Of a stretch of DNA of 36,121 nt, positions 2,763 to 36,121 are shown one piece after another. Below the pieces are notes generated by a model. That model was given only the letters and a program-made list of their open reading frames with translations. It ran no database searches and had not been told where the DNA came from. This stretch comes from a virus (lineage: Duplodnaviria > Heunggongvirae > Uroviricota > Caudoviricetes), in IMG/VR virus record IMGVR_UViG_2778261180_000005; one strand, written 5' to 3'. How positions within the stretch are numbered: position 1 is the stretch's first letter; each line of letters starts with the position of its first letter. The position numbers and the translations under genes are program-made.

Positions 2763-3761
2763 TTAGAGAGCCTCTAAAGGGCTTAAATCGAGTTCTAAGT
2801 TTTCCGGTGTTAAATCAGCTAACGGTGCATTCATCCACTGCGATAAATCTCGTTCTATGTCTTCATCACTAATGTAGTTGTTCAGATTGATTGCGTTGGT
2901 ATCATCAAAATACATTGGCTTAGATGGGTTGGTGTGGATGTATTCATTGATGAATGATTTAACATCTTTCAGCTTGCTAATCGGTAGCGTTTCTGTGAAT
3001 CCGCTATTCATTACCTTACGTGGGATTTTCTTGCCCTGAATATTCTTTTTAATCCCCATTTCTAAATCACCAGCTTTCCATCCAATGTTAAACAAATGTG
3101 AGCATTCAAAGGTGATTTTCTCGCTGGTGTGCTTCTGGTGTTCTCTTACCCGTTGCATCGGATCTTTGCGAGTGGTAATTCCATATTTGAAAAACTTCTC
3201 GCCAACACGAATTAGATAAAAGTGCATAGGGCGCTGTGCAAACTTGTTTCTGATAACCTGTTTTCTACCATTCTGAATTGATTTAAGTACACCCCTAACC
3301 AAAGGGCATGTTAACCCGCCTTGTCTGCGGTTATTGTGTAAATCACCTTTCTTGTGAATCTTTCCGTGGCACTTACAACGAAGAATTAGTTTAGTGTCAA
3401 CACCCTGATAAGGTTCAGCCAGACCTAACACATCCCACCCTATCGGCTTGTAGAACTTGCGAGCGTTTTCTAAGTGTTCTTCTTCGGTAAATCTAAACTT
3501 CTTCTTAGGCGGTGATACTCTATCTTTGCCAGTAAACTGACCAGTTAGAACATGACTAATACATGGCGTTTTAACCTTTCCGTTAACTTCTATGCAAACT
3601 TTGGTGTTCTGGAATGGTTTCTTTACAGGAAGCACAAAACCACTGTATAACCATCCATGCGCTTGACAAACTTTAATGATTCTGGTTTCATATTCGACCG
3701 GAGGGGTCGCACGTTTGCTTTTTGCGGTAAATTCGATATCCTTTGCTAAAGTAGTATTCAT
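2763..3761 (-). CDS. Zn-finger plus T5orf172/GIY-YIG-like domain protein (homing-endonuclease-like), 332 aa
   Basis: Start moved to ATG at 3761 (SD GAGGA 7 nt upstream); CxxC..CxxC-type cluster (CKCHGK..TCPLV) followed by FYLIRVGEKFFKYGITTRKDPMQRVREH. Confidence 0.65.
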   Translation of the reverse strand: MNTTLAKDIEFTAKSKRATPPVEYETRIIKVCQAHGWLYSGFVLPVKKPFQNTKVCIEVNGKVKTPCISHVLTGQFTGKDRVSPPKKKFRFTEEEHLENARKFYKPIGWDVLGLAEPYQGVDTKLILRCKCHGKIHKKGDLHNNRRQGGLTCPLVRGVLKSIQNGRKQVIRNKFAQRPMHFYLIRVGEKFFKYGITTRKDPMQRVREHQKHTSEKITFECSHLFNIGWKAGDLEMGIKKNIQGKKIPRKVMNSGFTETLPISKLKDVKSFINEYIHTNPSKPMYFDDTNAINLNNYISDEDIERDLSQWMNAPLADLTPENLELDLSPLEAL

Positions 3762-3796
3762 ATTAGTGTCCTCGAAAATAATAAGTTCACTACTAT

Positions 3797-4249
3797 TTAT
3801 TGAGAAAAATTTGTTGTAATGGTTGAAGACCACGGGCATGAGTAGTAACCACGACCGCCACCGATCAAGCAAATGGTCGGACGGAAGCCAGTAAGATCGC
3901 AAAATGAATCAGTGTCATGTGCTGGGGAACGATGCTCTGCTTCGTTAGAGAAAATGTTGGCTACCGGAGATTCCACTTTAACTTCCGGTGCTTCTTCAAC
4001 ATCTGACTTAACTTCTTCGACCACTGGTTCAACTGCCGGAGATTCTTCTTTTGTTTCTTCAATGACGATCTCAGGTTCTTTCATTGCTTCAACCAGAGAC
4101 GGATCAACTTCGTCGAATACCACTTTATCATCTGCGGTGTCTGCTGCCAGAATAAGATCGTTAATACTGGTTCCTTCTGCCGGAGTTTCTTCTTCCATTT
4201 CGGAAGCCAGTTTAGTTAATTCGGTTTCTACGAACTCGATCATCAACAT
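3797..4249 (-). CDS. acidic hypothetical protein (150 aa)
   Basis: Glu/Asp-rich ORF; the opposite-strand ORF 3873..4277 is Ser/Thr-rich as expected for an antisense artefact; weak RBS. Confidence 0.4.
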   Translation of the reverse strand: MLMIEFVETELTKLASEMEEETPAEGTSINDLILAADTADDKVVFDEVDPSLVEAMKEPEIVIEETKEESPAVEPVVEEVKSDVEEAPEVKVESPVANIFSNEAEHRSPAHDTDSFCDLTGFRPTICLIGGGRGYYSCPWSSTITTNFSQ

Positions 4250-4289
4250 TAAAGGTAATGCCTATAAGATAAATTAAGTGAGGTTTTTT

Positions 4290-4871
4290 ATGATGAATGA
4301 TGTGCGCAAAGCATGTGATATCCCGTTCAATTTTATCCGCACCAAAAATGGCAAAGCGCCATCACATCCAATTGATATGGAAGCAAGGATCGTGACCCGT
4401 ATTGAAAACGAGGGTTTACCCTTGATTTATCACGGATTCAAAGGTGAGTATAAATCAATCAATAGCCGTATTGTGCTAGAGTGTGAAAGCTGCGCAAGAA
4501 TCAGAGATATAACAGCAAAACAATTCTTACATAATCCTACTGTGTGCCCGTGTAATCGTAGCAAATATGACAACAAATATAAAAATGGGCAACCAGTATT
4601 ATATGTTATGCGGTGTGGTGATGTGGGTAAGGTTGGAGTAAGTCACAATGTGTTGACGAGAAAACATAAGCTAAGATGCCAGAATAAGATGAAATTTGAT
4701 ATCATCGAGACTTTCGAATTTCAAGACGAAAAAGACGCATACGCGGCAGAATTGTTTATCAAGAAAAACCTAGTAAAAGGTGATTTTGATATTAAAGAAG
4801 GTGCTACAGAAACGTTTGTTTATAATGAAAAAATGGTCAGAAATATAGCTAACGTCGCCAGCATATTCTAA
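4290..4871 (+). CDS. Zn-finger plus T5orf172/GIY-YIG-like domain protein, paralog of 2763..3761 (193 aa)
   Basis: ATG at 4290 with AGTGAGG SD; CESC..CPC cluster followed by LYVMRCGDVGKVGVSHNVLTRKHKL. Confidence 0.65.
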   Translation: MMNDVRKACDIPFNFIRTKNGKAPSHPIDMEARIVTRIENEGLPLIYHGFKGEYKSINSRIVLECESCARIRDITAKQFLHNPTVCPCNRSKYDNKYKNGQPVLYVMRCGDVGKVGVSHNVLTRKHKLRCQNKMKFDIIETFEFQDEKDAYAAELFIKKNLVKGDFDIKEGATETFVYNEKMVRNIANVASIF

Positions 4872-4872
4872 C

Positions 4873-4905
4873 AAAAAAGCGCCCACTAGAGGCGCTTTAA
4901 TTTTA
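4873..4905. terminator. bidirectional intrinsic terminator
   Basis: AGCGCC cactaga GGCGCT hairpin between an A6 run and TTTAATTTT; sits between convergent genes. Confidence 0.7.
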
Positions 4906-5256
4906 TCCATTCCACCGTGATTTTTTTGATCTGGAATCAATATGCGTAAAGGTTTTATATTTTCCTAAGCCGTATTGAGTAGGATATTTCCCATCAAGAT
5001 AAGCATGGACAATATCAGGGGAGACACCCTTGACCACAATGTCAGCCGCACGGCCTCGAACGTGATAGCTGTTGGTTGCCCCGCCTACATTCTTGTTATG
5101 AGCCGGGCAACGGTTGCCACTGTTAATAATCACTGGTTTACCGAAGTGTTCTCGTACATCCTCAAGAATTACCAGTAATTCAGCGTCGATTGTATCATAA
5201 TCACATTTTCCGCATTTACATTTAAATTCCTTGCGAGAAAAATGTTTGCTTAACAT
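4903..5256 (-). CDS. endolysin, peptidase M15 family (117 aa)
   Basis: Motifs SRKEFKCKCGKC, GGATNSYHVRGRAADI and FTHID typical of zinc M15 peptidoglycan peptidases; SD AAGGGGG. Confidence 0.85.
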   Translation of the reverse strand: MLSKHFSRKEFKCKCGKCDYDTIDAELLVILEDVREHFGKPVIINSGNRCPAHNKNVGGATNSYHVRGRAADIVVKGVSPDIVHAYLDGKYPTQYGLGKYKTFTHIDSRSKKSRWNG

Positions 5257-17091: not shown

Positions 17092-20000
17092 TTACCCTAA
17101 TTTAGCTTCAATTGCAGCAAGACGTTCACGAAGAAGTTTATTTTCTTCGCTCATTTCTTGGACCGCTTTAATTAAAAGCGCGTTCACTGCGGAGTTTGAA
17201 ATTGTTAAAATTTCTTCTGGGTTATCAAGAGATCCGACATTAGAAGTGCTAACAGCTTCCGGTAAAATTTCTTGTAAATCCTGTGCGATAATACCAATCT
17301 CATGTGCGATGACTTCTCTGTCAGAAAGAGACTTAACTTTATCGTAGGTTTTAACTTTTAGTTTATTTACCTTATCTACCGCATTTTCTTCGTAGTCTTC
17401 AACGTTAATTTTCAGACGACGGTCGGAACGAATATAAACATCGTTACAGTAAACCGACGCACTAGATGTGAAATCACCATTTGCAGCCCATGAATACCAG
17501 CCGCCTTTGTTCATATGCATCATTACGGTAGCTTGACCACCGCCAGCATGAACACCCATTGCCGCAAGATGATCAACACCCCAATGAGTTGCTTTCCAAA
17601 TTGAATATGCTTGGGTATGTGAATCCTGACAATCTAAGAGAATACCAGCAGGACGGTTGCGCCAGTCATCCCATGCACCACCAGAAACCTCACCACGGAT
17701 AAGAGCGTATTCACCATTATATGGAACACGTTCTCCCGCTTTAATCATTGCACCCTGGAAGTGATGACTAAATGAACCCCCATGATTATTTCGTATATGT
17801 AAAATACCATCATCTGTAGCCCAGATAACAGCCTTTTCCGATTCGCTGTCATCTCTAAACCAGATATGGCGTGCACCAGTTGAGTTTTTGATGGTTATTC
17901 CGGTAGGTCCATGCACGGTCAAAGCACCAGCTACATCAAATAAAACGGTGTTATCTGTTCTACGTTCAGTATAGAAGTGATAACCTTTGGAATCGCCGAT
18001 TTCCATTACTGCCGCGCGTCCAACTTCTGAATTTCCCCAATTGTTGATAGAGAATCGTTCAGAGCTATTATTCATCTGATTTAGGTATAATGTACCGTCA
18101 GTGAATGTTTCGCCAAAGAATCTAGTTTTAATGCTATTGGTTCCGGTGCGTTCAAATTCGGCTAAAAATCCTTTTGAGTCACGAAGACTTAAAACGTTAT
18201 TTCGACCTGTATTGCTTGCCCCCCAATGGACGAGTTCCATATAGTCCATAGATTGACGAGAACCAGATTTAAATAAAAGGTTGTCTTCGAGACGAGTGCT
18301 ACCATCAATTCCCAGGTGCAAACAACGAGCGGTTTCAGTACCACCTAAATATAGTCCACCATCATCAAAATTATAGCTGAATGGTCTGCGATTATTCCAA
18401 CTACCAAAAGAATCTTTTAAATTGGTAGTAAGAATATGGAAGCTAGAACCGTCATTGCGTAACATCAAACCATAGTTACCGCCTTTAACAGCCAAACGAG
18501 CATTTTCAGATAATGCAACTTCGCTATTCATTACAATTTTCTGGCCTTTACCACCAGTAATATGTAATTCACCGTCTTCGATCAAATTTATCGAGTTTTG
18601 ACCGTTATCGTTCCACCAAATAAAATCTTTGGTCGTCAAATCACCAAAACCAAACCAGCCATTACGAACATCTTGACCAGTGCGATAATCCATAAAATTA
18701 AAATGGCTTGCTTCGTTTGGTCCTCGACGAATATCAATACCAGCATTAGAACCGGAACCTAAGCCACCATCGATGGTCAATCTACGAATATGCAAACCGG
18801 TTACAGCCGAAAGCAATAATTGTTGGGTTACATCGGTATATCCAGTAGCAAGACGATAATTTTGGTCATCAACACTTTCGTGCCAGATAGTGGCAGGAGC
18901 AGAACTACGGAAGCGACGCAACATCTTTTTAGCATTTGTCGGTTGTTCGTTCATATGCTCAATGTCGTATTGGCCTTGATGGTTTCCAGCAAAATTTAAC
19001 GTTCCACGGTTGCTAAAGTTATTGAACGATGAAATGTTAAGAGCATCAAAAATTTCATCTGCAACAGGTTTTTCACCACCCAGATATTCAGGAGTATCCA
19101 ACAGGTTTAAAGAAACACCACCGGAAGAAACTTGATATTCTGCTAAAACAAATCCTGTATGTGCACCGTAGTAAGCGTAAAGATCGTAATTATCACCATC
19201 GGTTGGAATAGCGCAAAAATGTTGTTCATAATGCCAAATAGTATAATACGCATTGAATACAACACCTTTCGGGCTATTGTTGCCGCATCGAATCACCAAT
19301 TCGATAATATTGGCTTGTCCATTCATCCCGACGTTATAACCGTTACCACCAACCAAACGGATCTTAGCGGTGCGACCGTGTTGCTGTGGCATTGTCAAAG
19401 TGCCTAGTTTAAACCAACCACCCTCGATCCCAAAATTAAGCGTCTTCTGGAACAGTCGGTCAATTTCTGCTTTCGAATATGCGCCAATTTCAGCCGGAGT
19501 AGGTTTATCGCCTTCATGATACATGCGGTGAGAATATGACAAGTTACCCAATTCATCGTAGCCGTATGTTCTTACCGTATGAACCGGATTAGACCCATAA
19601 GTGAACTCAAAGCCACGAGCATGATTAACACCAGATGGATGCGGAACATGCAAGATCATTGCAATATGACCCGCCAGGTCATTCATGCGGAATGCACCAA
19701 AGTAGTCAAGATTACGCGCACTCGGATCATCAAAATAGTTTGCGGTCTTAGACAACAAATAACCATCAGTATAAGTGTTTACGTGTTTTTTGATGTACTT
19801 GCCATCACTCGATCCGTCGGCTGCATCAATACGGCTTTCTAAGCGTGCCAGTTCAGAATCAGTGTAAGACTTGTTATTGTCAACTTTGCTATGAATTGCT
19901 GAATTTTTGGCTTCAACATCACGGGTTAATGCTGCGACGTTATCCGCTGCCTCTTGCTTATTAGCCGCAATCACACCAGTAAGGTTATTGTAGGTGTCAG

Positions 20001-26539: not shown

Positions 26540-28444
26540 TTAGAACGATGTTACCCAACTACGGCCTCTATTTGGACGTCTGGCGATGTTTTTACGTTGT
26601 GGTCGTGTGATTGGCTTAGTTTCTTCGATTTTCTCGTCAGATTGCGATTTAGGAGCTTTTACGGGTTCTTCGACAACACGGTTTAAGCTGTCTTTCATTG
26701 CAATGAGTTTATCCCATGACATTTTTGAAAGGACGTAGCGAGAAGCCGCTGTAGCATACACGGCGCAGTCGAGCGCCTCGTTCCTAACGCCTGGGTTCTT
26801 TACCCATCTCACGCCAGTAGTAGTACGCTTGACAGATTCACTTAAAAGCTGATCGAGATAATCATCAGGAACGGTGTCTGATATTTCTAAGCCAATATGA
26901 GGATTATCTTTCAGGTTCCTAGCCAACATTTCACGAAATGCAGTTTTACCCACATTAACACCCAACATAAGCAATTCATGACCACCTGTGCGGGTAGGTT
27001 TAACCGGAATGATCGGAGCGTTACCAGCAGAACTACCTTTGATAGCGTGTAAGTTCTTCCACTTGCCGCAAATACGGTATCCAGCTTGAGTGAATCGACC
27101 GTTCGATGTATCAAGGAAGCTGGCGAGCATAGGAACACGATCACCCGATACAGTAGTAAATTTGGTTTTATGGAAGTTGATTAATCTATCCCATACAGGG
27201 GATTCATATCGTTCACAGTTATGATCGTAAAAGCTGCGATGATCCAGAATATAAATCTTATCCTTTGCCACGCCCATGATTGTAGTTTCTGCGCGATCTA
27301 ATTGCTGGTCGGTACCCGCACACAAGAAAATCACGTCATCAGGGATATTCTCGATAGAAACATCTGTTTTTAGTTGTTCCAGTTCATTTGCTTCTACTGC
27401 CGTGTCCTGATCGTCGTATACCTTGCCTAACACGGTGTTATAAAATGATTGTAAATCAAAGGATTGCCACGCATGGCTAAAATCAACCACACAAGCGCGG
27501 ATCGTGCTGAAAGGTGAATACAGACGGCTGATCCAGAATCCTGCTACCTCACTTTCACGGGTTGCTCTCCACTCGCCTTGTGCTACTGCCCTGATTCGTT
27601 CCCCTTCGGTCCATGCGTTCTTACAGTGGGGGCAAATATAACGAGCGGTATCAGGATCGGGTAAGTTCTTACCATCGATGTTACGCCATTCAAATTGAAC
27701 GTTTTCCCACTCGATCACCTGGTGTTCCCCGCAATGAGGACACGGAACAAAAAACATACGCATATCACTTGATAACCATTGCTGGTTAATGCTTCCGAGC
27801 TTACTGGTCGGGGTACTGGATACGACTAATCGGCCTTCATCGCCAAAGGTAGTTAAACGGTTAGCAGCCAGTGCCACCGGATCACCTTCTTCTGAGGCTG
27901 TAGCAGCATCGATTTCGTCAAGCAATCCAACCTTTGCGGTCTTACCGCGTAGGGTTGATGGACTAGTAAGCGATACCATATAAAGGAAGTGGTTTGATTT
28001 GAGCTGGAGCTGATTGTTGTTATTAACAGAATTGCGATCATTCTTGTCTGTAACCACGTCTTTTAATGCATCACATGCTTCGATAGACGGTCGGATCTTA
28101 CCCGCGAGATATTGAGACATTTCTTTAGCGGTTGATTGTCCGATAATCATATTGCATGGATCGTTAGCCATCTGGTTAAACAGGATACCGTTTAGGATGG
28201 TAGTTTTTCCGATCTGCGCACTGGTCATCAGTACATACTTTTTCTTATTCTCAAGGAAAGGAGCATCAATCATGCCTTTCTGGAATGACAGCAATTTAAC
28301 TTTATCCCCCGCTTGAGGACCATCTACCAGCACCATATTCGCTTCGCACCATTCAGAAGGAAGGAGTTTAGGCGGTGGCGTAATATATTTGGCTGCATTT
28401 TTGAGAATCTTTTTTAATTTGGCCTTATTAGAAATCAGTTTCAT
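26540..28444 (-). CDS. terminase large subunit, lambda gpA family (634 aa)
   Basis: Walker A (SAQIGKTT); gpA-like motifs [30 protein letters not shown]; GAGGGT SD. Confidence 0.9.
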
Positions 28445-28487
28445 GTAATTACCCTCATTACGAAATATGAAGGTATTTATTAAATTG

Positions 28488-28515
28488 TTGATATTTTGAT
28501 AAATACGGGTATTAA
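28488..28515 (+). promoter_or_regulatory. candidate sigma70 promoter for the rightward accessory genes
   Basis: TTGATA, 16-nt spacer, TATTAA. Confidence 0.35.
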
Positions 28516-28529
28516 TTAAAGGGGGGTGT

Positions 28530-29132
28530 ATGCTAATTAATCAGCAACAAAGAGATGAATTAGAATTAGCCTTGTCTTGTACCGATCATGAATATCGTTT
28601 ACCAGTTAAGCATAAGCATTTAAAAACCGACTACACAACATCTGGCTTTAGTCGTGAGGAAGCGAAAGAGATTTTAATAGAGTTTTACCGCGATAATGGT
28701 TATACAGACGTTCACAACTTCTTTAAGAAGCATAGAACATCACATACAGAGTTTCGGAGAGTCCGAGATTGGTTTGATTTTGATATCAAGCGTTATTATC
28801 GAGTGGATGACGGTCCTATCTATCGGTTGCAGTGGACACCGATCAGGGAAGTGTTGAAACAGAAGAGATTGAATCACGCAATTACACGCTATCGTAACGA
28901 GGCTTTCAAGAAAGGCTATGGTGATACAAGGGAACTATTCGTTGAACTCGCTAACGTGCGTTATAGCCACTATTACAACGATCCTAAAGGGTTCTTTGAA
29001 GTGCTTCGCAAGGTTGATATAAGTCGGGGTACATACTATTCACGGTTGAAGAAGTACGGGATTAAGGCAGAGTTCTTTATGAGTATTGACGATGGAGAAC
29101 TTTTTCCGATAAAATGTAAGTCCTCTAAATAA
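28530..29132 (+). CDS. hypothetical protein with C-terminal HTH (200 aa)
   Basis: AAAGGGGGG SD; C-terminal [17 protein letters not shown] is homologous to the HTH of the 77-aa and 60-aa proteins. Confidence 0.6.
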
Positions 29133-29160
29133 AGGTGAACATTCACTTTAATTTGGAGAA

Positions 29161-29394
29161 ATGACTATGACTACTAAAGCTACTCGCGGTCGTCCTTGCC
29201 GTTTTAACGCTGAACAGATGGCTGATATTGCCTACGCTTACTATACAGCGGATCGTGGTAAGGAAGCGAAAGAACAGATTCTTAGTGAACATGGGATCTC
29301 AATCGCCCAATTCTATAAGAATATGAAGAAGTTAGACATTAAATTCTATGTTCAGATCGGTGATGGTCAGATCGTAGAAGCAACAGGTTTTTGA
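29161..29394 (+). CDS. small HTH protein (77 aa), terminase-small-subunit N-domain-like
   Basis: RGRPCRFNAEQ...GISIAQFYKNMKKLDIK; the ATG at 29167 has better SD spacing than 29161. Confidence 0.6.
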   Translation: MTMTTKATRGRPCRFNAEQMADIAYAYYTADRGKEAKEQILSEHGISIAQFYKNMKKLDIKFYVQIGDGQIVEATGF

Positions 29395-29409
29395 GTTTTG
29401 ATTCTCTTT

Positions 29410-29433
29410 GCCACTCTTCGGAGTGGCTTTTTT
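29410..29433 (+). terminator. intrinsic terminator
   Basis: GCCACTC ttcg GAGTGGC followed by TTTTTT. Confidence 0.85.
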
Positions 29434-29566
29434 GTATGTAAAACAATCTCGCCAGTTTTGGTGAGATCTATAGATGCCCTCAAAACTGAGGGGATGTGCT
29501 TAAAGTTCAGCATATCTATCTAAGTGGTTGATTCTTTCTAGAAATCCAAATCTGGATGCATCAGAT

Positions 29567-29598
29567 ACAAAAAAGCCCAGCGCAATTATGCGCCGGGC
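29567..29598 (-). terminator. intrinsic terminator after the Rha-like gene
   Basis: GCCCAGCGCA atta TGCGCCGGGC stem followed by a U-run on the minus strand. Confidence 0.8.
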
Positions 29599-29604
29599 GA
29601 TTAA

Positions 29605-30435
29605 TCAGATCCCAAAATCAACAAGGGAAATTACGTTACCTGATTCACGAATCTGTTTAGCAGCTTTGTTTTGAATCAGAATAGTGTTGTTCGGCTTAGG
29701 AAGATTCAGAGTTGCTTTTTGTTCTTCTTCCAGAATACCCAATTCAACCAACACAGGAAGAACATCAACCGTAAACTCAAGTTGGTAGTGAGCATTCATG
29801 CGGCAGAAAGACAGAGAAGAGTCATTAGCAACATACCCACACGGCTTGTTATTTTCATCGTAGACGCGCTCAATGTAGCCAGCAGTACGCAAGGCCGTTA
29901 GTGCTTCTTTAACCTTCGTAGCGCCCTTTTTAGCGCCTAACAGACGGGTCATTGAATGGCTATCTACTGATTTGCGAACATGAAGTTCAATCAGCTTTTT
30001 ATTTTCGCGAGTTTTCTTTAATGCCAGTTCGATCCAGTCTGTTTCTTCAAAGTCTGCATATGGATTAACGGCTAAACGTTCCTGACGCAGTTTTTCATTT
30101 TCTTCTTTCAGTCGCTTCCATTCCTGAATAACAACCATTCGACGCTTAACATCGTAACCAGTGACAAGAGTCAGCGTCATTTCTTCGTCTAAGTGATATA
30201 CTGGTTCTTTAACAGCATATCCTAAGTTATTGATTCTCTCGACAAATTCAGTTTTGAGCTGATCGATAATACCTAAAGATTCGTACATTTCGCGAATATC
30301 GCGCATTACATTGCTGTGCTTCTTATCGGTAAATTCAGCGATCTGACGAGAAGACATGGTCAGCGGTTTGGTGTTATCAACAACCAGAGACATTGAAGCA
30401 GTTTTAACAGTATTCATAGTAGTAACAGTATTCAT
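29605..30435 (-). CDS. Rha-family phage regulatory protein (antirepressor-like), 276 aa
   Basis: N-terminal LTMSSRQIAEFTDKKHSNVMRDIRE; start uncertain because of a tandem ATGAATACTGTTA duplication at the 5' end. Confidence 0.7.
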   Translation of the reverse strand: MNTVTTMNTVKTASMSLVVDNTKPLTMSSRQIAEFTDKKHSNVMRDIREMYESLGIIDQLKTEFVERINNLGYAVKEPVYHLDEEMTLTLVTGYDVKRRMVVIQEWKRLKEENEKLRQERLAVNPYADFEETDWIELALKKTRENKKLIELHVRKSVDSHSMTRLLGAKKGATKVKEALTALRTAGYIERVYDENNKPCGYVANDSSLSFCRMNAHYQLEFTVDVLPVLVELGILEEEQKATLNLPKPNNTILIQNKAAKQIRESGNVISLVDFGI

Positions 30436-30538
30436 AGTAAAAATTCCCCTTAAACGGTTTAGTGATTGATTCTCCTGTTTTTAACTGTCCACACGCCAAC
30501 GGCGCGCGGAACAATTTTATTTATAAGAAGTTTTTATC

Positions 30539-30685
30539 TCATTTAGATTCAGCAATCGCGCGATCAATTTCTTCTTGAATGCGACGCTGGCGTTCATGGA
30601 AGTCAACCATTGAGAAATTCAGGTTTGGGGTCCACGGTTTGCGGTTCGGGTTTTTACGTCCATCAATTTTCTTAGTAGTGTTCAT
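30539..30685 (-). CDS. small basic protein (48 aa), candidate
   Basis: Not in the ORF track (under 60 aa); AAGAGGA SD 7 nt upstream; consensus promoter directly upstream. Confidence 0.5.
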   Translation of the reverse strand: MNTTKKIDGRKNPNRKPWTPNLNFSMVDFHERQRRIQEEIDRAIAESK

Positions 30686-30743
30686 AATTAACATCCTCTT
30701 TACAAATCTAGGTCAAATAGGTTCAAAGTTGTCAAGTGCGATA

Positions 30744-30772
30744 ATCATAAAAAAGTCATAAAATTTTGTCAA
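30744..30772 (-). promoter_or_regulatory. sigma70 promoter (minus strand)
   Basis: TTGACA, 17-nt spacer, TATGAT when read on the minus strand. Confidence 0.6.
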
Positions 30773-30807
30773 TACCCCTTGACAAGACGCCAAAGGGTTG
30801 ACCTAAC

Positions 30808-31260
30808 TTACAGCATATCTAAGCCTTCATCGTAACCGTAGAAGCCATTCTGAGAAGAGAAGCAGATTGGTGCGTAGTCGTCGTCATCTTCGTCTTGTTC
30901 ATCGTGTTCTGGGGCTTCCTGAGCGGGTTGTTTACCATAATCAGCCATAATCTGGTCAAGATCGGCGATCCCATAGTAAGAGCCTAAATCAACGTCATAT
31001 TCACGAACATCAAACGGCAGGTCATCACGAACAATAATTGCCGGAATGTTGTTGTATTGTTCACGACCTTCATCAGTAAAGCAGTCTACGATCACCGTAG
31101 GGCGACCATTACGTTTAAGAGCATAGAAAGCAGTTGAGAAATTGGAGTCTTCGGAATGACGAATGATGTTATAACCACGATTAGCGAAAACATGCATCAT
31201 AGCCAGATTATCATCATGGTTCAGACCCAGAAGAATGAAAGGAGTTTTAGTATTGATCAT
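30808..31260 (-). CDS. hypothetical protein with acidic C-terminal tail (150 aa)
   Basis: AGAGGA SD; a 6-bp inverted repeat operator-like site sits upstream. Confidence 0.6.
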   Translation of the reverse strand: MINTKTPFILLGLNHDDNLAMMHVFANRGYNIIRHSEDSNFSTAFYALKRNGRPTVIVDCFTDEGREQYNNIPAIIVRDDLPFDVREYDVDLGSYYGIADLDQIMADYGKQPAQEAPEHDEQDEDDDDYAPICFSSQNGFYGYDEGLDML

Positions 31261-31281
31261 AGTGGAAATCCTCTAAAAGAA

Positions 31282-31303
31282 AGTGAATCAAAGTAAGTTC
31301 ACT
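31282..31303. promoter_or_regulatory. palindromic operator-like site
   Basis: AGTGAA-N10-TTCACT between the putative promoter and RBS of the 150-aa gene. Confidence 0.4.
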
Positions 31304-31464
31304 ATTATTTATAACGAGAAATTTTTGTCTAATTTGAAAGGAATTGGTATTCAGTCGGCTTCGCCTCCTTCATAGATTTTGATTAAATCATCATCAAAAC
31401 GAAGAAGTATCTTTAGAATATAAGAATCTTTCTTTTGGAGAAATAATAATCCGGAAGCAATTTA

Positions 31465-31493
31465 GCAACCGAAGGTTGCAATCCCGAAGGGAT
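31465..31493. other. two adjacent short hairpins with GAAG loops
   Basis: GCAACC gaag GTTGC and ATCCC gaa GGGAT. Confidence 0.4.
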
Positions 31494-31522
31494 ACCAATA
31501 CCTTTCATGATCATTAAAGTGA

Positions 31523-31750
31523 TCTAGAATCATCTAGTAACCAGTTAACTACTATTATCTTCAAAGTGATTATTACTATCTTTCTAGAATCAGTTAGTAA
31601 CTAGTTTAAAATCCCTTTCAAGAAAATCCTTTCAGAAGTGATTCTCGATGCCACGCAGTGGCGTCGCAGACGTTTGAGAGTGAGCGAAGCGAGCGAGCAA
31701 ACTAGTTAATTCCTTCTAAGACCATCTAGTATCATCTAGTTTAAATTAGT
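31523..31750. repeat. CTAG-rich direct repeats (about 27 bp, 3 copies)
   Basis: TCTAGAATCATCTAGTAACCAGTTAAC at 31523, TCTAGAATCAGTTAGTAACTAGTTTAA at 31583, related copy at 31723; TCTAGAA also occurs at 29537. Confidence 0.6.
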
Positions 31751-31943
31751 GTTACTAGAAGTAATTGGTTAGCGCTTCGCGCAGTCGGGCTACGCCCTCC
31801 TAATATCTTTTTGGTTATTTGTTGTTTTTGGTTTTACACATGAGCGTAGCGAATGTGTTATATAATATCTATGCACGCCCGATCCCCCGCTTTTGCCCCT
31901 CACTAAGTTAATGTTTTATAAAGAGTTTTTCTCACCAATCCTT

Positions 31944-32131
31944 TTCGGGGGCAAATTTCAGGGGCAAAAATTAGATTTTCAGGGGCAATTATTGGCATTT
32001 CAGGGGCAAAAATGAGGGGCAAAATCACTGTTTCCCAGAATTTCAGGGGCAAAAATAGTGGGTTTCAGGGGCAAAAATGGGATAGTGAAATCTAGGGGAT
32101 TTTGGTTCAGGGGCAAAATTCAGGGGCAAAT
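31944..32131. repeat. iteron array, about 10 copies of TTCAGGGGCAAAA
   Basis: Copies begin at about 31944, 31957, 31978, 31999, 32013, 32041, 32063, 32092 (variant), 32106 and 32119; spacing is mostly 13-22 bp. Confidence 0.85.
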
Positions 32132-32135
32132 TTCA

Positions 32136-32185
32136 TAGTGTAGGGCTAGTGTAGGTTTGAAAATCCTTTGTTGACACTGTGTAGG
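32136..32185. promoter_or_regulatory. TAGTGTAGG direct repeats (2 copies plus a TGTGTAGG inside the promoter spacer)
   Basis: Copies at 32136..32144 and 32147..32155; related copy at 32178..32185. Confidence 0.5.
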
Positions 32186-32199
32186 ATCGGTGGTATACT
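32171..32199 (+). promoter_or_regulatory. near-consensus sigma70 promoter
   Basis: TTGACA (32171-32176), 17-nt spacer, TATACT (32194-32199). Confidence 0.75.
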
Positions 32200-32591
32200 T
32201 GAAAATTCGAGATAAATATGTTATAATATTTGTATTGAAAGTGAAAATTTACCGATTTTCCTTCCTATTGTTATCACTGTGTTAAATTGTTATATGTCTG
32301 TGAAGATTTGGATCTGAGAGAAAATCTTGTAACAAATCTTTACAATTCATAGCTCAATTAATGCTCACCGCTTTAGCAAAAAGTGCTATGCCTTTTTCTA
32401 AATTGATTGAATAAACATCAATTTGGTTAATTCGTGTTCTTCTCTTTAGCAATTCGTGCTGCGGTTTAACACATTTAACACGCCTGATAACATCCAAATA
32501 ACATTTTAACATATCTCTGTTCTAAATACATATATAAGAGATAAATGTGAGGGGTTGAAAAATTAAAAACAATCCCCATATAAATAATAGT

Positions 32592-32612
32592 GAGCGGTTA
32601 ACGCTCTTTTTT
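32592..32612 (+). terminator. intrinsic terminator/attenuator ending a ~400-nt untranslated transcript
   Basis: GAGCG gttaa CGCTC followed by TTTTTT. Confidence 0.55.
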
Positions 32613-32647
32613 AAGAAATCATTAATCCAGATTTAGGAGGATTCAAG

Positions 32648-32830
32648 ATGGCACGACCTGTTAAGTTCACTCGTGAAATCGTTTTAGAAATGGCAAAGCG
32701 TTATTTTGAACTGACGCCTGATGTAGTGATTGGTGAATGGTTTAAAGGTGAAGGTATTGATCAATCAACCTTCCACAAACTCTTAAAGAAGTATGACATT
32801 AAAGTAAAGATAACCGCAGAGGTTTACTGA
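32648..32830 (+). CDS. small HTH protein (60 aa), paralog of the 77-aa protein
   Basis: Strong SD TAGGAGGA at 7 nt; MARPVKFTRE...GIDQSTFHKLLKKYDIK. Confidence 0.7.
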   Translation: MARPVKFTREIVLEMAKRYFELTPDVVIGEWFKGEGIDQSTFHKLLKKYDIKVKITAEVY

Positions 32831-32871
32831 TACTTTGACTGAGAATTATATGATGGCTTTAAAAATAAAAA

Positions 32872-32900
32872 AGCCCCCTTGCGGCAACAAGGAGGCTTTT
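32872..32900. terminator. intrinsic terminator (leaky/bidirectional)
   Basis: AGCCCCCTTG cggcaa CAAGGAGGCT followed by TTTT; an A-run lies upstream. Confidence 0.65.
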
Positions 32901-32942
32901 GCGATGAACAATTAAAACTAACTTTCCACAGGAGTATTTATA

Positions 32943-33884
32943 ATGTTATTTTCCGCTAACTTTTTCACTAACGAAGTAACCAACGCTAAAGCAGTTATCA
33001 AATTTGGCACCGAAGCAAACAAGAAGATTCAGCCGAAAGTTGTTGCTCATGTTTCCTTTGCGCAGCAGAAATCCGCTTTCGCTGGCTTTAAAGCACATCG
33101 TGAAGCACTGATCGCGGCTGGCTTTGGTGTTGACGGTAAACTGCCTAACGGCATTCGTAAAGCAATCGACCGCGTTAAACCTGCTAAAGACGTTGCAGTA
33201 GACCACATCGTTACTTTTACCGTTAAGAACTCTTCTGAACTGTTCCACCTGGTTATTGCTGGTGATACTGCTATCGTTTCCGCTCCTAACATGGATTTTC
33301 AGGATACCGCTGATTGCCAGATCACCTTCGGTCGTCGTAAAGAAGTTACCGGAAAAGCTAAACTGAACTTCACTAAATCCGGCAATCCTTACTTTGCTGT
33401 TTTCTTTAACAGCCACGCTACCGAAAAAGAAGTTGTAGAACTGGTTGCTTATGAAGGTGAAGAGAAAGAACGTATTGAATCTTGCGAAGCATTTCTGGAA
33501 CTGGAAGCACAGGTGAATGCTGTTTCTCCGGTTGTTGAAGATCGCTTTGCTGCACTGGAAGCACAGATCGCAGAACTGAAAGCTGCACTGGAAGAAAAAG
33601 ACCAGATTATCGAAGCACAGAAAGCTGAGATTGAAGAACTGAAAGCTAAAGAAGTTGCTCCGGTAGCAGTAGTTGAAAACGCGGCTGATGAGGCCGCAAA
33701 TGATGAAGTAGAAGTGAAAATCGATGTGATGCGTGATCCGATGGCTGCACTGCAATTACTTCGTTCTTTTAAGGGCAAATCTCATTTTTCTAGTGATGTA
33801 GAAGATGAGGAAGAAGAACAGAAACGCAATGCTGCAATGCTTCATGATGAAATGTACGGTACTAACTTTTCTTACTGCCAATAA
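32943..33884 (+). CDS. hypothetical coiled-coil protein with strongly host-optimised codon usage (313 aa)
   Basis: SD AGGAG; codons dominated by CTG, CGT, GGT, GAA, AAA and CCG, unlike the rest of the element; central coiled coil and acidic C-terminus. Confidence 0.8.
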   Translation: MLFSANFFTNEVTNAKAVIKFGTEANKKIQPKVVAHVSFAQQKSAFAGFKAHREALIAAGFGVDGKLPNGIRKAIDRVKPAKDVAVDHIVTFTVKNSSELFHLVIAGDTAIVSAPNMDFQDTADCQITFGRRKEVTGKAKLNFTKSGNPYFAVFFNSHATEKEVVELVAYEGEEKERIESCEAFLELEAQVNAVSPVVEDRFAALEAQIAELKAALEEKDQIIEAQKAEIEELKAKEVAPVAVVENAADEAANDEVEVKIDVMRDPMAALQLLRSFKGKSHFSSDVEDEEEEQKRNAAMLHDEMYGTNFSYCQ

Positions 33885-33906
33885 AAAAGGGACTCCGAAG
33901 AGTCCC
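33883..33906. terminator. intrinsic terminator (mainly for minus-strand transcripts; hairpin abuts the stop of the 313-aa gene)
   Basis: A6 then GGGACTC cgaa GAGTCCC. Confidence 0.7.
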
Positions 33907-33983
33907 TAGTAAGTTTAGGTTAGGTTTTGCACAACAAAGATGAGGTTATAATGAACATAATGCTACATTATTCTTTAAAGCCA

Positions 33984-34010
33984 GAAAAATAACCGCCCCC
34001 TTCGGGGCGG
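33984..34010 (-). terminator. intrinsic terminator (minus strand)
   Basis: CCGCCCC cttc GGGGCGG preceded on the plus strand by AAAAATAA, which is a U-run on the minus strand. Confidence 0.7.
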
Positions 34011-34168
34011 GAGGATTAATACTCAATCTATACTTGTTATGTTTTTATGTTGTATAGTCACTGACTATGAAAACACTGTACTGAATGTGTTTTATGGCTT
34101 TTAATCGGGAACTCTCTTTCGAAAATTCCCTGTTAAAACCACATAAGGAGAAAAGGCAGATTACAATA

Positions 34169-34453
34169 TTATTTAGTCTGTTTGAAAACAAACGTTAAAA
34201 ATTCGATTAAGCAATATACCCAAAGTACGGTCAGCATCAAATGCATAGCAATAGTTGGATGGAAGTTAAAAAGTGTCATACTAACTAGGCCAACAATATA
34301 AGAAATCCCTTCGACAATTAACGCAAGGCTAGCAAATGCAACAAACGCACCTAAGAATAATTCGCCTCGTTCTTTCGGTTCGGTTCCGAGTTTATAAGCA
34401 GAGATAGCAGCCAGAATAGTAATGATGACAGCATAGGTAATAAAAGTAGCCAT
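34169..34453 (-). CDS. small integral membrane protein (94 aa, about 3 TM segments)
   Basis: AAGAGGA SD; hydrophobic segments ITYAVIITILAAISAY, LGAFVAFASLALIVEGISYIVGLV and LMLTVLWVYCLIEFLTFVF. Confidence 0.65.
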   Translation of the reverse strand: MATFITYAVIITILAAISAYKLGTEPKERGELFLGAFVAFASLALIVEGISYIVGLVSMTLFNFHPTIAMHLMLTVLWVYCLIEFLTFVFKQTK

Positions 34454-34547
34454 AGTTTTATATCCTCTTAAAAGTTAAGCGGGGGATGTTCTCCCCCGTA
34501 GACGTTGACCCGTTCAACATCTTTCTCACTATTATTTATAACGCGTT

Positions 34548-35105
34548 TTAAGACACATCAAATTCATCGTCTTCTTCTGGTTCTTGTTCTTCCGGTTCAT
34601 CCATTAATGGTAATTCTTCTTCCTCGTCTTCTCCCAAATCTGCATTTTCGAACAAGTCCCCTACTTCATTTAAACGACGCTCGATAATCTCCCTTAGCTT
34701 ATTCTTTAATGTTTTCTGGTCAGTGGCAGATTCGAGAATTTCTAAAGCGTCGATTGTGGCGATCTGCAAAATAGTCTGCTTCACTTTCCCGCAGTATTCC
34801 GCTAGCTCCTGCTCCACATAACCGACGGGAATCAGGAGATTCATTTTTTCCTGGTTCTCTCGTTCGATGGCGTCCGCTAATGCTCTTTCTCTGCGGAGAC
34901 GTTCTTGATCAATCGCTTCTTTGATTGAAGTTTGTTTAAGTGGGTTAATTACGTTCTTTAGCACCCAATCGCAACCTTCCTTTGCTGGTACACGACGCGT
35001 GTGGGTGTTCATCGGTAGTCCCCTTTCTAACCATCGCTTACCGCCACCATTCAATGTATAGCCATATAAACGGGAAATTTCTGTAAGGGTTAATTCTTCT
35101 TTCAT
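34548..35105 (-). CDS. Nu1-like winged-HTH protein; candidate terminase small subunit (or other DNA-binding factor), 185 aa
   Basis: GGAGGA SD; N-terminal LTLTEISRLYGYT...WLERGLP resembles the Nu1/MerR-type wHTH; coiled coil; acidic C-terminal tail. Confidence 0.5.
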   Translation of the reverse strand: MKEELTLTEISRLYGYTLNGGGKRWLERGLPMNTHTRRVPAKEGCDWVLKNVINPLKQTSIKEAIDQERLRRERALADAIERENQEKMNLLIPVGYVEQELAEYCGKVKQTILQIATIDALEILESATDQKTLKNKLREIIERRLNEVGDLFENADLGEDEEEELPLMDEPEEQEPEEDDEFDVS

Positions 35106-35401
35106 TGGTTATCCTCCATTAAATTTGCGTAATTTTATTTATTGGTTTTACGCAAAATCTAAGCGCCTAAATCGCATTCTAACGAAGGGAAAGATCCAGT
35201 AATGGTAAGGGTTAGGAAGTGGGTTAATAGTCGCGTAGCGACCGCGCCATGAGTGAAGTGATCACGTTTTAGATCCTGACGCGCACATCAAATAACGGGG
35301 TGCCGAAAACTCGCTTTATTTCACCCGTGGAACAGTACCTTTTGATTTTGTCAAGTCTTTTTTATAAATAATCGAAAATATTTTTCACGCGAGGGCAAAT
35401 C

Positions 35402-35770: not shown

Positions 35771-36121
35771 TTATTGGGGTTTACAACATTTAGGTTTGCC
35801 AATTCGCCTGGCTAACTCTTGCTGAGTGATTTCTGACTGTAAAAAAGCATTTAACAGCAATACTTTAGAGGCGACGCTCAAAGGTACTTCAATAAAGTGA
35901 TCATGACTATTTAATGGCGAAGGTAACGGGATAAGCTCGTTATCTTCAAAATAAAAATCAAATGCGGTCAGTAAAGCATCTTTTGCCGCTTCCATCGCTT
36001 CAGCGACAGTTTCGCCCTGCGTCAACGCTTCAGGGATATCCACAAAAGAAACCATATAACCGCCTTCCGGCGCGGGTGTAAGAGTGACGGGATAACGCAT
36101 AATTTCGACTGTCTCTCGCAT
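35771..36121 (-). CDS. hicB: HicB-like antitoxin, apparently truncated at its 3' end
   Basis: MRYPVTLTPAPEGGYMVSFVDIPEALTQGETVAEA... N-domain with enterobacterial-like codon usage; HTH begins (SEITQQELARRIGKPK) but the ORF ends CCKPQ* five codons later, at the composition switch. Confidence 0.7.
   Translation of the reverse strand: MRETVEIMRYPVTLTPAPEGGYMVSFVDIPEALTQGETVAEAMEAAKDALLTAFDFYFEDNELIPLPSPLNSHDHFIEVPLSVASKVLLLNAFLQSEITQQELARRIGKPKCCKPQ

Follow-up and report, generated by a model that had tools for sequence, protein, structure and literature searches.

A conserved control and probable replication region separates the terminase genes in a lineage of enterobacterial prophages

The sequence record IMGVR_UViG_2778261180_000005 (36,121 bp, in the following referred to as the window) comprises nearly one whole prophage of a tailed phage. 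This complete temperate phage genome of approximately 35.8 kb is integrated in the hicB gene of Escherichia coli via a large serine recombinase. The genes for its two terminase subunits, terL and terS, are located on the same strand with start codons 6.66 kb apart, leaving a spacer of 6.1 kb between the genes. From terL to terS, the spacer carries the genes p200 and p77 with helix-turn-helix (HTH) modules, a gene for a Rha-family regulator, p150, a non-coding region with an array of short direct repeats (iterons), the genes p60 and p313, and p94, which codes for a small membrane protein. An initial annotation of the window had named terL, the 185-aa open reading frame (ORF) here assigned as terS, the Rha and small HTH genes, the iterons, the 313-aa gene and the membrane protein, and re-examination of the sequence found each of them where it had been placed. 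That annotation explained the gap between the packaging genes either by a large cargo insertion or by the 185-aa protein being a recombination directionality factor (RDF), with terS outside the window. The analysis presented here leads to another conclusion: the spacer belongs to the phage itself, as a conserved region for control and probably for replication, and an enterobacterial prophage lineage shares this unusual gene order.

The product of terL (26540-28444, minus strand, 634 aa) is assigned to the gpA-type large terminases by its matches to the Pfam families GpA_ATPase (7.8e-57) and GpA_nuclease (7.7e-46) and to PHROG_15 (3.8e-141). The gene is the first of the long structural operon, which runs from 28444 on the minus strand and has a lambda-type portal gene after terL. 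No same-strand ORF fit to be terS adjoins terL in the window. The neighbouring gene p200 is divergently oriented behind a gap of 85 bp (28445-28529), at which the initial annotation had described a divergent promoter region; the divergent gap is there, and a prediction of sigma-70-like promoters gave none in its 85 bp. Two terL alleles, approximately 58% identical, circulate in otherwise near-identical E. coli prophages and are paired with the same terS. The first 14 and the last approximately 60 amino acids are common to both alleles, which suggests that the allele ends are recombination boundaries at the partner-binding ends of the protein.

The gene terS (34548-35105, minus strand) codes for 185 aa with an acidic tail and forms one short, terminated unit with p94. 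In most genomes of the lineage the Prokaryotic Genome Annotation Pipeline (PGAP) labels the product as hypothetical protein. Sequence comparisons identify it as a divergent small terminase of the lambda Nu1 type, as the initial annotation had considered. Residues 58-169 match the 'terminase small subunit' family PHROG_57 (E 6.4e-10). An hhalign comparison of the TerS family alignment A2 with lambda Nu1, whose first 101 residues agree with PDB chains, aligned residues 5-92 to 3-110 with 95% probability (E 3.2e-8) and thereby spanned the winged helix and the next helix. A profile of 14-15 family members retrieved the gpNu1 DNA-binding domain and related TerS chains from the PDB at 1e-3 to 7.5e-3, among them 6hn7_B, a TerS chain (1e-3), and 1j9i, the DNA-binding domain of Nu1 (2e-3). 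An exhaustive HMMER search over 1.8 billion representatives yielded 223 TerS relatives; the Pfam family Phage_Nu1 (PF07471) was matched by 27 of 61 aligned remote relatives (best E 6e-20), and the broadened profile reached Nu1 structures at 9e-16 to 2e-13. In the AlphaFold2 (AF2) model, which has a predicted local distance difference test (pLDDT) score of 74, a strand, two helices and a wing are followed by long helices, and the acidic tail is disordered. The model is all-helical from residue 41 to 154 (pLDDT 70-91) and describes an extended helical monomer. Together with the PHROG_57 match, the modelled helices indicate that the central and C-terminal helical region typical of small subunits, which serves oligomerisation and TerL binding in such proteins, is present. 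The strongest support for the TerS identity is the position of its relatives: proteins 35-39% identical (P0078 clade, loci L041-L047) are encoded directly upstream of a gpA-type terL or overlap with it.

Several results weigh against this assignment. The 185-aa protein gave no match in Pfam at E <= 0.01 and none in NCBIfam, two of its close relatives (P0073, P0080) reach 21.5 bits where the gathering cut-off of Phage_Nu1 is 30, and a Foldseek search of the AF2 model against the PDB and BFVD returned no informative match. One may ask whether the protein is a working small terminase at all or a Nu1-like winged-helix protein co-opted as RDF or regulator next to the attachment site, the true subunit being p200 or p77. 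The gene lies approximately 690 bp from the right attachment site attR, Nu1-like N-terminal domains also occur in non-terminase proteins such as RppC, the protein falls below the Pfam threshold, and p200 and p77 are DNA-binding-type proteins whose genes invariably adjoin terL. Against this, the homology runs past the winged helix into the helical region of Nu1, the PHROG profile covers residues 58-169, and conservation extends over the full length to relatives whose genes overlap terL in the canonical arrangement. A motif upstream of terS, described below, travels with the gene in both arrangements, and p200 and p77, which are transcribed divergently, gave no match to any TerS family. We therefore regard a non-terminase role of the 185-aa protein as very unlikely. 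Searches in Pfam, NCBIfam and PHROG revealed no excisionase or RDF match, and the best similarities were all to small terminases; RDFs of serine integrases are too diverse for a sequence test to rule out such a role outright. The proposal of an RDF with terS elsewhere also fails on the Nu1 alignment and on the approximately 37% identical relatives upstream of terL. The window is almost the entire prophage with known ends, so that terS cannot lie outside: the right end is located in host hicB approximately 690 bp past terS, and in a near-identical prophage the stretch from the left attachment site to the gene that comes first in the window has no annotated terS.

Both terminase genes were located in 44 loci besides the window. 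In a close clade, comprising genomes of E. coli, Salmonella (TerS 51% identical) and Proteus (TerS 57%) as well as IMG/VR contigs with TerS identities down to 44%, all 30 loci exhibited an identical gene order and distances of 6.1-9.1 kb from start to start. A second clade (P0075 type; TerS 33-40%, TerL 47-51% identical) has its terminase genes 5.4-6.7 kb apart in seven loci. In its spacer, too, a small HTH gene and Rha/Ant-like genes accompany a long non-coding gap, and a gene for an endonuclease-VII-like protein lies beside terL. Adjacent genes, the usual arrangement for a Nu1-type subunit upstream of a gpA-type terL, were found in neither the window nor the 37 loci of these two nearest clades, and only in a third clade of uncultured viral contigs from IMG/VR (L041-L047; TerS 35-39%, TerL 39-41% identical). 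There, terS abuts or overlaps terL with no island gene in between, and terL is followed by a gene for approximately 165 aa and the portal gene, matching the order in the window with its 164-aa-type gene. Since this sister clade is canonical, the split is the derived state. Its distribution indicates an old and stable lineage trait rather than a recent insertion. A one-genome-per-species scan with the TerS alignment gave no confirmed locus.

These comparisons bear directly on the view of the spacer as dispensable cargo or a foreign insertion, be it a moron block, a satellite or an integrated element, that split formerly adjacent genes. The adjacency in the sister clade does imply that an insertion or rearrangement occurred once; parts of the spacer are mosaic and exchangeable, and terminators bracket its units. 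In contrast, each of the 37 split-type loci, from three genera and two clades, carries the spacer with conserved order and similar size, and variation is limited to swaps of single genes (the Rha allele, p313 and its counterparts, p94). Neither the variable presence nor the dispensability of a cargo island was found among these loci, and the spacer is without an integrase, a transposase or flanking repeats of its own. Furthermore, it is the only non-structural, non-integration module and the only regulatory region between two defined prophage ends: outside the spacer the window contains only the recombinase, strain-variable cargo, lysis and structural genes, and removal of the spacer would leave no control or replication genes. 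Cargo insertion, the first proposal of the initial annotation, is largely refuted by these findings and we consider it extremely improbable. The spacer is better understood as the early region of the phage, because nothing else in 35.8 kb could supply lysogeny control or replication.

The genes of the spacer are arranged in separately terminated units, in agreement with the initial annotation: 14 terminator-like hairpins were counted where 5.8 +/- 2.1 were expected, and they are placed at unit ends. Next to terL, p200 (28530-29132, plus strand, 200 aa) consists of two tandem copies of a p60-type HTH module; residues 40-87 and 133-182 align to p60 with BLASTP values of 0.039 and 7e-4. It faces away from terL in every close-clade locus and is 67-99% identical across all 30 of them. 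The adjoining p77 (29161-29394, plus strand, 77 aa) is a small HTH protein and a paralogue of p60 (33% identity, E 3e-6). Four copies of one small HTH module, 33-34% identical, are thus distributed over the three island genes p200 (two copies), p77 and p60, and p200 and p77 are the best-conserved genes of the island. A terminator follows p77 (29410-29427, plus strand), and another belongs to the Rha unit (29575-29598, minus strand). The Rha-family regulator (29605-30435, minus strand, 276 aa) matches Pfam Phage_pRha at 3.2e-12 and anti-repressor families of PHROG at 3e-17. Its slot is variable, with 38-99% identity among relatives, and Proteus is without Rha.

A 51-aa ORF on the minus strand lies between the Rha gene and p150 (30808-31260, minus strand), a conserved protein with an acidic aromatic C-terminal tail; besides E. 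coli, the loci of Salmonella (40%) and Proteus (36%) encode it. This tail, DEQDEDDDDYAPICF...GFYGYDEGLDML, recalls the C-terminal peptide of single-stranded DNA-binding protein (SSB), and p150 is encoded beside the putative origin described below. The small HTH protein p60 (32648-32830, plus strand, 60 aa), with alleles of either 55-58% or at least 80% identity, is encoded by the first gene of the p60-p313 unit; a minus-strand terminator is located at 32869-32900. The gene p313 (32943-33884, plus strand, 313 aa) occupies a position filled by different proteins in related prophages, which are here collectively called slot proteins. Finally, p94 (34169-34453, minus strand) is a small hydrophobic protein, co-oriented with terS and with terminators behind it at 33993-34010 and 33888-33907 (minus strand); several relatives have other small hydrophobic ORFs in its place.

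The intergenic region between p150 and p60 (31261-32647) is a non-coding control region of 1.4 kb, and all close relatives possess an equivalent gap of 1.2-1.6 kb. Its left part is conserved among variants and contains several short GC hairpins. Those at 31335-31507 and 31640-31800 include GCAACC-GAAG-GTTGC and CCC-GAAG-GG, whose loops are of the UUCG type on the minus strand, as well as GCCAC-GCA-GTGGC; between variants the stems are kept and the loops vary (GGC-TTC-GCC, GGGC-AAA-GCCC, GGGC-TAAA-GCCC). An Rfam scan of 28-36.1 kb found nothing below E 0.49. Repeats of the type TCTAGAATCATCTAGTAAC are present at 31523-31748. The iteron array follows at 31892-32136 (plus strand) with ten copies of TTCAGGGGCAAA, nine of them direct and one inverted at 31892-31903, spaced by 13, 21, 22, 42-43 and 64 bp. 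With up to two mismatches, 11 matches to TTCAGGGGCAAA were counted against 3.1 +/- 1.8 expected, ten of them in 31892-32130, and none of 100 shuffles reached 11. Directly downstream of the array, two near-consensus sigma-70 promoters face p60 and p313 (32171-32227, plus strand), overlapping with a stretch of 80% A+T at 32211-32260. Between the array and the -35 element of the p60/p313 promoter, positions 32136-32155 hold two copies of TAGTGTAGG, the iteron of the other E. coli replicon type, which might have been left behind by an exchange of cassettes or act as a common operator.

The array and the slot protein vary together. All 11 loci encoding p313 had the TTCAGGGGCAAA array, and the 33 others were without it (Fisher p 1.3e-10; as the compared loci are not phylogenetically independent, this and the following Fisher values overstate the evidence). 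At the same place, relatives have arrays of approximately eight copies of TAGTGTAGGTTT with a protein of 328-333 aa; in Salmonella and Proteus, 9-25 copies of (C/T)ATCCCTAG with an exact 11-bp period accompany a protein of 318-330 aa. CGGGGA-type repeats, as well as CTTGTACATC together with CTAATACCGGGG, occupy this position in further relatives. In all, the gene downstream of p60 changes along with the array type, four array/protein pairings were found beyond that of p313, and the two loci that have two kinds of arrays also have two slot-protein genes. Neighbouring genes assort independently of, or only loosely with, the iteron type (p 0.004 for p60, which lies between array and slot gene, 0.0014 for p150 and 0.14 for the TerL alleles). 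The TerS proteins of all E. coli loci of either iteron type are 84-96% identical. Because array type and slot protein covary while neighbouring genes do not, the slot protein appears to recognise the adjacent array.

The slot proteins (287-371 aa) are remote homologues of each other, with BLASTP values of 1e-5 to 1e-7 among those of the relatives and of 2e-3 to 0.06 to p313. They share an N-terminal domain of approximately 170 aa, a coiled coil and an acidic C-terminus. Copies of p313 itself, 99-100% conserved, occur on more than 1000 contigs of E. coli and Shigella; a search for homologues revealed near-identical copies only, and a profile of six N-terminal domains returned only two subfamilies. 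As a side observation, C-termini of the form ...AA, ...VA or ...LAAA(M) are shared by many slot proteins (L013, L006, L005, L011, L031, L034-L040) and by the Rha/Ant-like proteins of the second clade. They recall ssrA-like degradation tags; p313 ends in ...SYCQ (33840-33884, the gene end).

In the reading that we favour, the iteron array and the slot protein would be origin and initiator. This is preferred because phased direct repeats in such number typify iteron origins and because the phage is otherwise without an origin or initiator. Head-to-tail repeats in 10-25 copies at spacings of 11, 13 or 21-22 bp are typical of iteron origins or centromeres, and phage operators are usually few and palindromic. 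A partition function of the 11-bp arrays, of the ParR/parC kind, was set aside, as the phage integrates and encodes no partition ATPase.

The same pair might, however, serve immunity, with p313 as the prophage repressor bound cooperatively to operators by its own promoter and replication depending on elements elsewhere or on host or unknown functions. Repressor and operator pairs likewise covary as mosaic cassettes, the array is situated directly upstream of the p60 and p313 promoters, p313 is read from the strand opposite to the lytic genes as would suit a gene expressed in the lysogen, and its near-invariance across contigs is in line with this proposal. Neither did the non-coding region contain a cluster of DnaA boxes: a single relaxed box was found near the iterons (31832), and no consensus box. 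An immunity function is at odds with the number and head-to-tail orientation of the repeats and with the need of the phage for an origin, for which 35.8 kb offer no other candidate cis element or protein. Moreover, p200, p77, p60 and Rha are better candidates for a switch. On balance, we regard immunity as the rather unlikely alternative to the origin and initiator.

Further results speak against a replication role and the wider explanation built on it. The slot proteins match no known Rep, repressor, ParB or O family in family libraries, PHROGs or the PDB and gave coiled-coil matches only, and the AF2 model of p313, calculated from a shallow alignment, has a pLDDT of 37. The window encodes no helicase loader, primase or helicase, so that an initiator would need to recruit all of these functions from the host. 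For terS and terL, neither a shared promoter or regulator nor a motif in both upstream regions was found. The initial annotation had found no recognisable replication or immunity genes. By family search this stands, as the island proteins matched no replication or immunity family in Pfam, NCBIfam, PHROG or PADLOC, and p200 and p150 matched no family in these libraries; the covariation of the iterons with the slot proteins nevertheless points to a candidate origin/initiator or immunity pair. The slot-protein family probably controls replication or immunity in a phage without recognisable replication genes.

A further element may tie several island genes together. The promoter-like 16-nt motif TTATAAATAATAGTGA occurs at 31299-31314 (minus), 32578-32593 (plus) and 34526-34541 (minus), where it precedes p150, p60 and p94 by 39-73 bp and has no more than one mismatch. 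The genes for Rha (30511-30526, minus) and p101 (35362-35377, plus) are preceded by weaker copies. The total of seven matches compares with 0.7 expected, and five island genes have a copy 25-76 bp upstream; the motif probably serves them as a common promoter or operator.

The DNA upstream of terS contains a candidate cos site at 35292-35340 (minus strand), AGGTACT-N23-GTTTTCG followed by the GC-rich core GCACCCCGTTAT at 35303-35292, 198 bp from the terS start codon. In a cross-genus alignment of the DNA upstream of terS, this was the one conserved block amid otherwise unalignable sequence, with the pattern AG(G/T)T(A/T)CT, 20-27 nt, (G/A)TTTCG, a variable GC-rich segment of 8-12 nt and a T-run. 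It was present on the terS strand, 62-276 bp upstream of the gene, in 33 of 40 loci from three TerS clades, compared with a background of approximately one match in 43 kb of single-stranded sequence. In lambda, the distance between nu1 and the start of the cohesive end is 190 bp, and the junction reads GTTACG|GGGCGGCGACCT; the motif of the window resembles it in both position and sequence. We infer that the motif may be a cosN-like site that stayed with terS in both gene orders. One point calls for caution: the pattern was drawn up from some of the sequences later counted (two clades not used for the first sighting contained it in 7 of 14 loci). Just upstream of the terS ribosome-binding site, an inverted repeat TTGCGTAA-N15-TTACGCAA (35125-35155, minus strand) is kept in the Salmonella and L031 relatives and is possibly an operator or a TerS-binding, cosB-like site.

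Taken together, the explanation of unlinked terS and terL, with a conserved early and control module as the spacer and with iterons and p313 as origin and initiator, appears fairly probable to us. The phage would package with a Nu1/gpA terminase whose terS is located at the far right, approximately 200 bp downstream of the cos-like site, and whose terL heads the structural operon 6.1 kb away. The half-module beside terL would comprise the divergent HTH pair p200/p77 and the Rha-type regulator, and the half-module beside terS the 1.4-kb non-coding region with iterons recognised by the slot protein encoded downstream. The HTH and Rha proteins would decide between lysis and lysogeny, and the initiator promoter would lie beside the iterons of the origin. 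After circularisation and replication, TerS may bind close to the cos-like site that precedes terS and then recruit TerL from the distant operon, the expression of both presumably being co-ordinated. The virion chromosome would then begin with terS, the early region and the structural genes and end approximately 490 bp beyond the phage attachment site attP. A bolder extension is put forward tentatively, as a possibility held with less confidence than the explanation itself: the slot proteins might be an undescribed, fast-diversifying family of iteron-binding initiators, each with its own array, forming interchangeable 'replicon types', and the cos-terS cassette might have been uncoupled from terL by the early region, so that packaging specificity and motor could reassort independently.

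The ends of the prophage and the remaining genes of the window complete this picture. At the right end, an ORF of the host antitoxin gene hicB (35771-36121, minus strand) loses its frame after ...GKPK, continuing with CCKPQ and a stop codon. At this break lies the attR crossover core AAACCTAAA (35789-35797), which is common to both junctions of a near-identical prophage in E. coli UTME-9 (NZ_CP157110). In that genome the N-terminal part of hicB is found at the right end of the prophage and a C-terminal remnant at the left end, 36 bp ahead of a 387-nt gene that corresponds to the first ORF of the window. Besides the window, locus L004 has its insertion site in hicB (18291-18446); hicA and a truncated hicB are left on the right side of the prophage. 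Elsewhere in the lineage, prophages adjoin ycdX instead of hicB. The left end of the window consists of a 128-aa gene, a gene for a small secreted protein and the large serine recombinase (995-2689; Pfam Resolvase, Recombinase, Zn_ribbon_recom). Approximately 2 kb of strain-variable cargo follow before the lysis genes, which include a Pfam Peptidase_M15 (4903-5256). In the window, the segment between recombinase and lysis genes (2763-4871) codes for a protein of 379 aa, which has no significant family match, and for one of 197 aa with a CapR-homology domain. UTME-9 has different genes there, and the segment is probably a defence or moron slot. PADLOC gave nothing significant for the proteins of island and cargo.

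A megablast search of the island against GenBank phages gave no match. The sole relative in phage databases was the first approximately 26.3 kb of the 141-kb record PQ671644.1 'Escherichia phage DCP80' (loci L001/L002), which extends from terL to terS. The record is classified as a T4-like Gaprivervirus, and T4-like genes join directly after the terS homologue; it is probably a chimeric assembly. The distance between terS and terL is consequently not readable from it. Literature searches on prophages in hicB and on non-adjacent terminase genes gave no description of this lineage.

The gene order has practical consequences. Annotation pipelines and cos/pac predictors assume that terS adjoins terL, an assumption broken by this lineage, which is common. 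A cos-terS unit beside attP and 6 kb from terL fixes the likely virion map and gives a testable candidate for the cos site, and the split may let packaging specificity and motor exchange independently. The contrast with the canonical sister clade provides a case for studying gene-order change in phages, and the iteron/slot pairs represent natural specificity variants of an uncharacterised, putative DNA-binding family.

Iteron-type replicons include lambda O/ori and the plasmid Rep/iteron systems of pSC101 and P1. The control region described here resembles them: direct repeats follow each other in tandem and in helical phase, A+T-rich DNA and the promoter of the neighbouring gene lie next to them, and the repeat sequence and the adjacent protein change jointly between variants. 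It differs in that the slot proteins match no Rep or O family, a DnaA-box cluster is not clear, and the copy number of the repeats is high (10-25). Unlike in lambda, the putative origin is not situated inside the initiator gene.

With respect to packaging, the cos phage P2 appears to be the nearest precedent among characterised phages for non-adjacent terminase genes. Its gpA-related large terminase gpP and the small subunit gene M belong to divergent operons. In P2, only capsid and scaffold genes within the late cluster lie in between, whereas the present lineage has a complete early and control region at this place. The sister clade L041-L047 shares the upstream motif (AGGTWCT...TTTCG followed by the GC-rich segment) and the order of terL, the ~165-aa gene and portal with the window, and differs in the contact of terS with terL and the lack of island genes between them. 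The cos-Nu1-A system of lambda has in common with the window a gpA-type TerL, a Nu1-like winged-helix N-terminal domain and helical region of TerS, a lambda-type portal after terL and a GC-rich site at a similar distance upstream of terS (198 bp here, 190 bp between cosN and nu1). In lambda, however, nu1 and A overlap (736/711), whereas the two genes are here 6.1 kb apart in separate terminated units with the early region between them; in addition, the TerS of the window is too divergent for the Pfam threshold, and a large serine recombinase mediates integration beside the cos-terS unit. The packaging system itself is therefore a known one, and what is unusual is a conserved gene order in which the cos-terS cassette is unlinked from terL by an early module.

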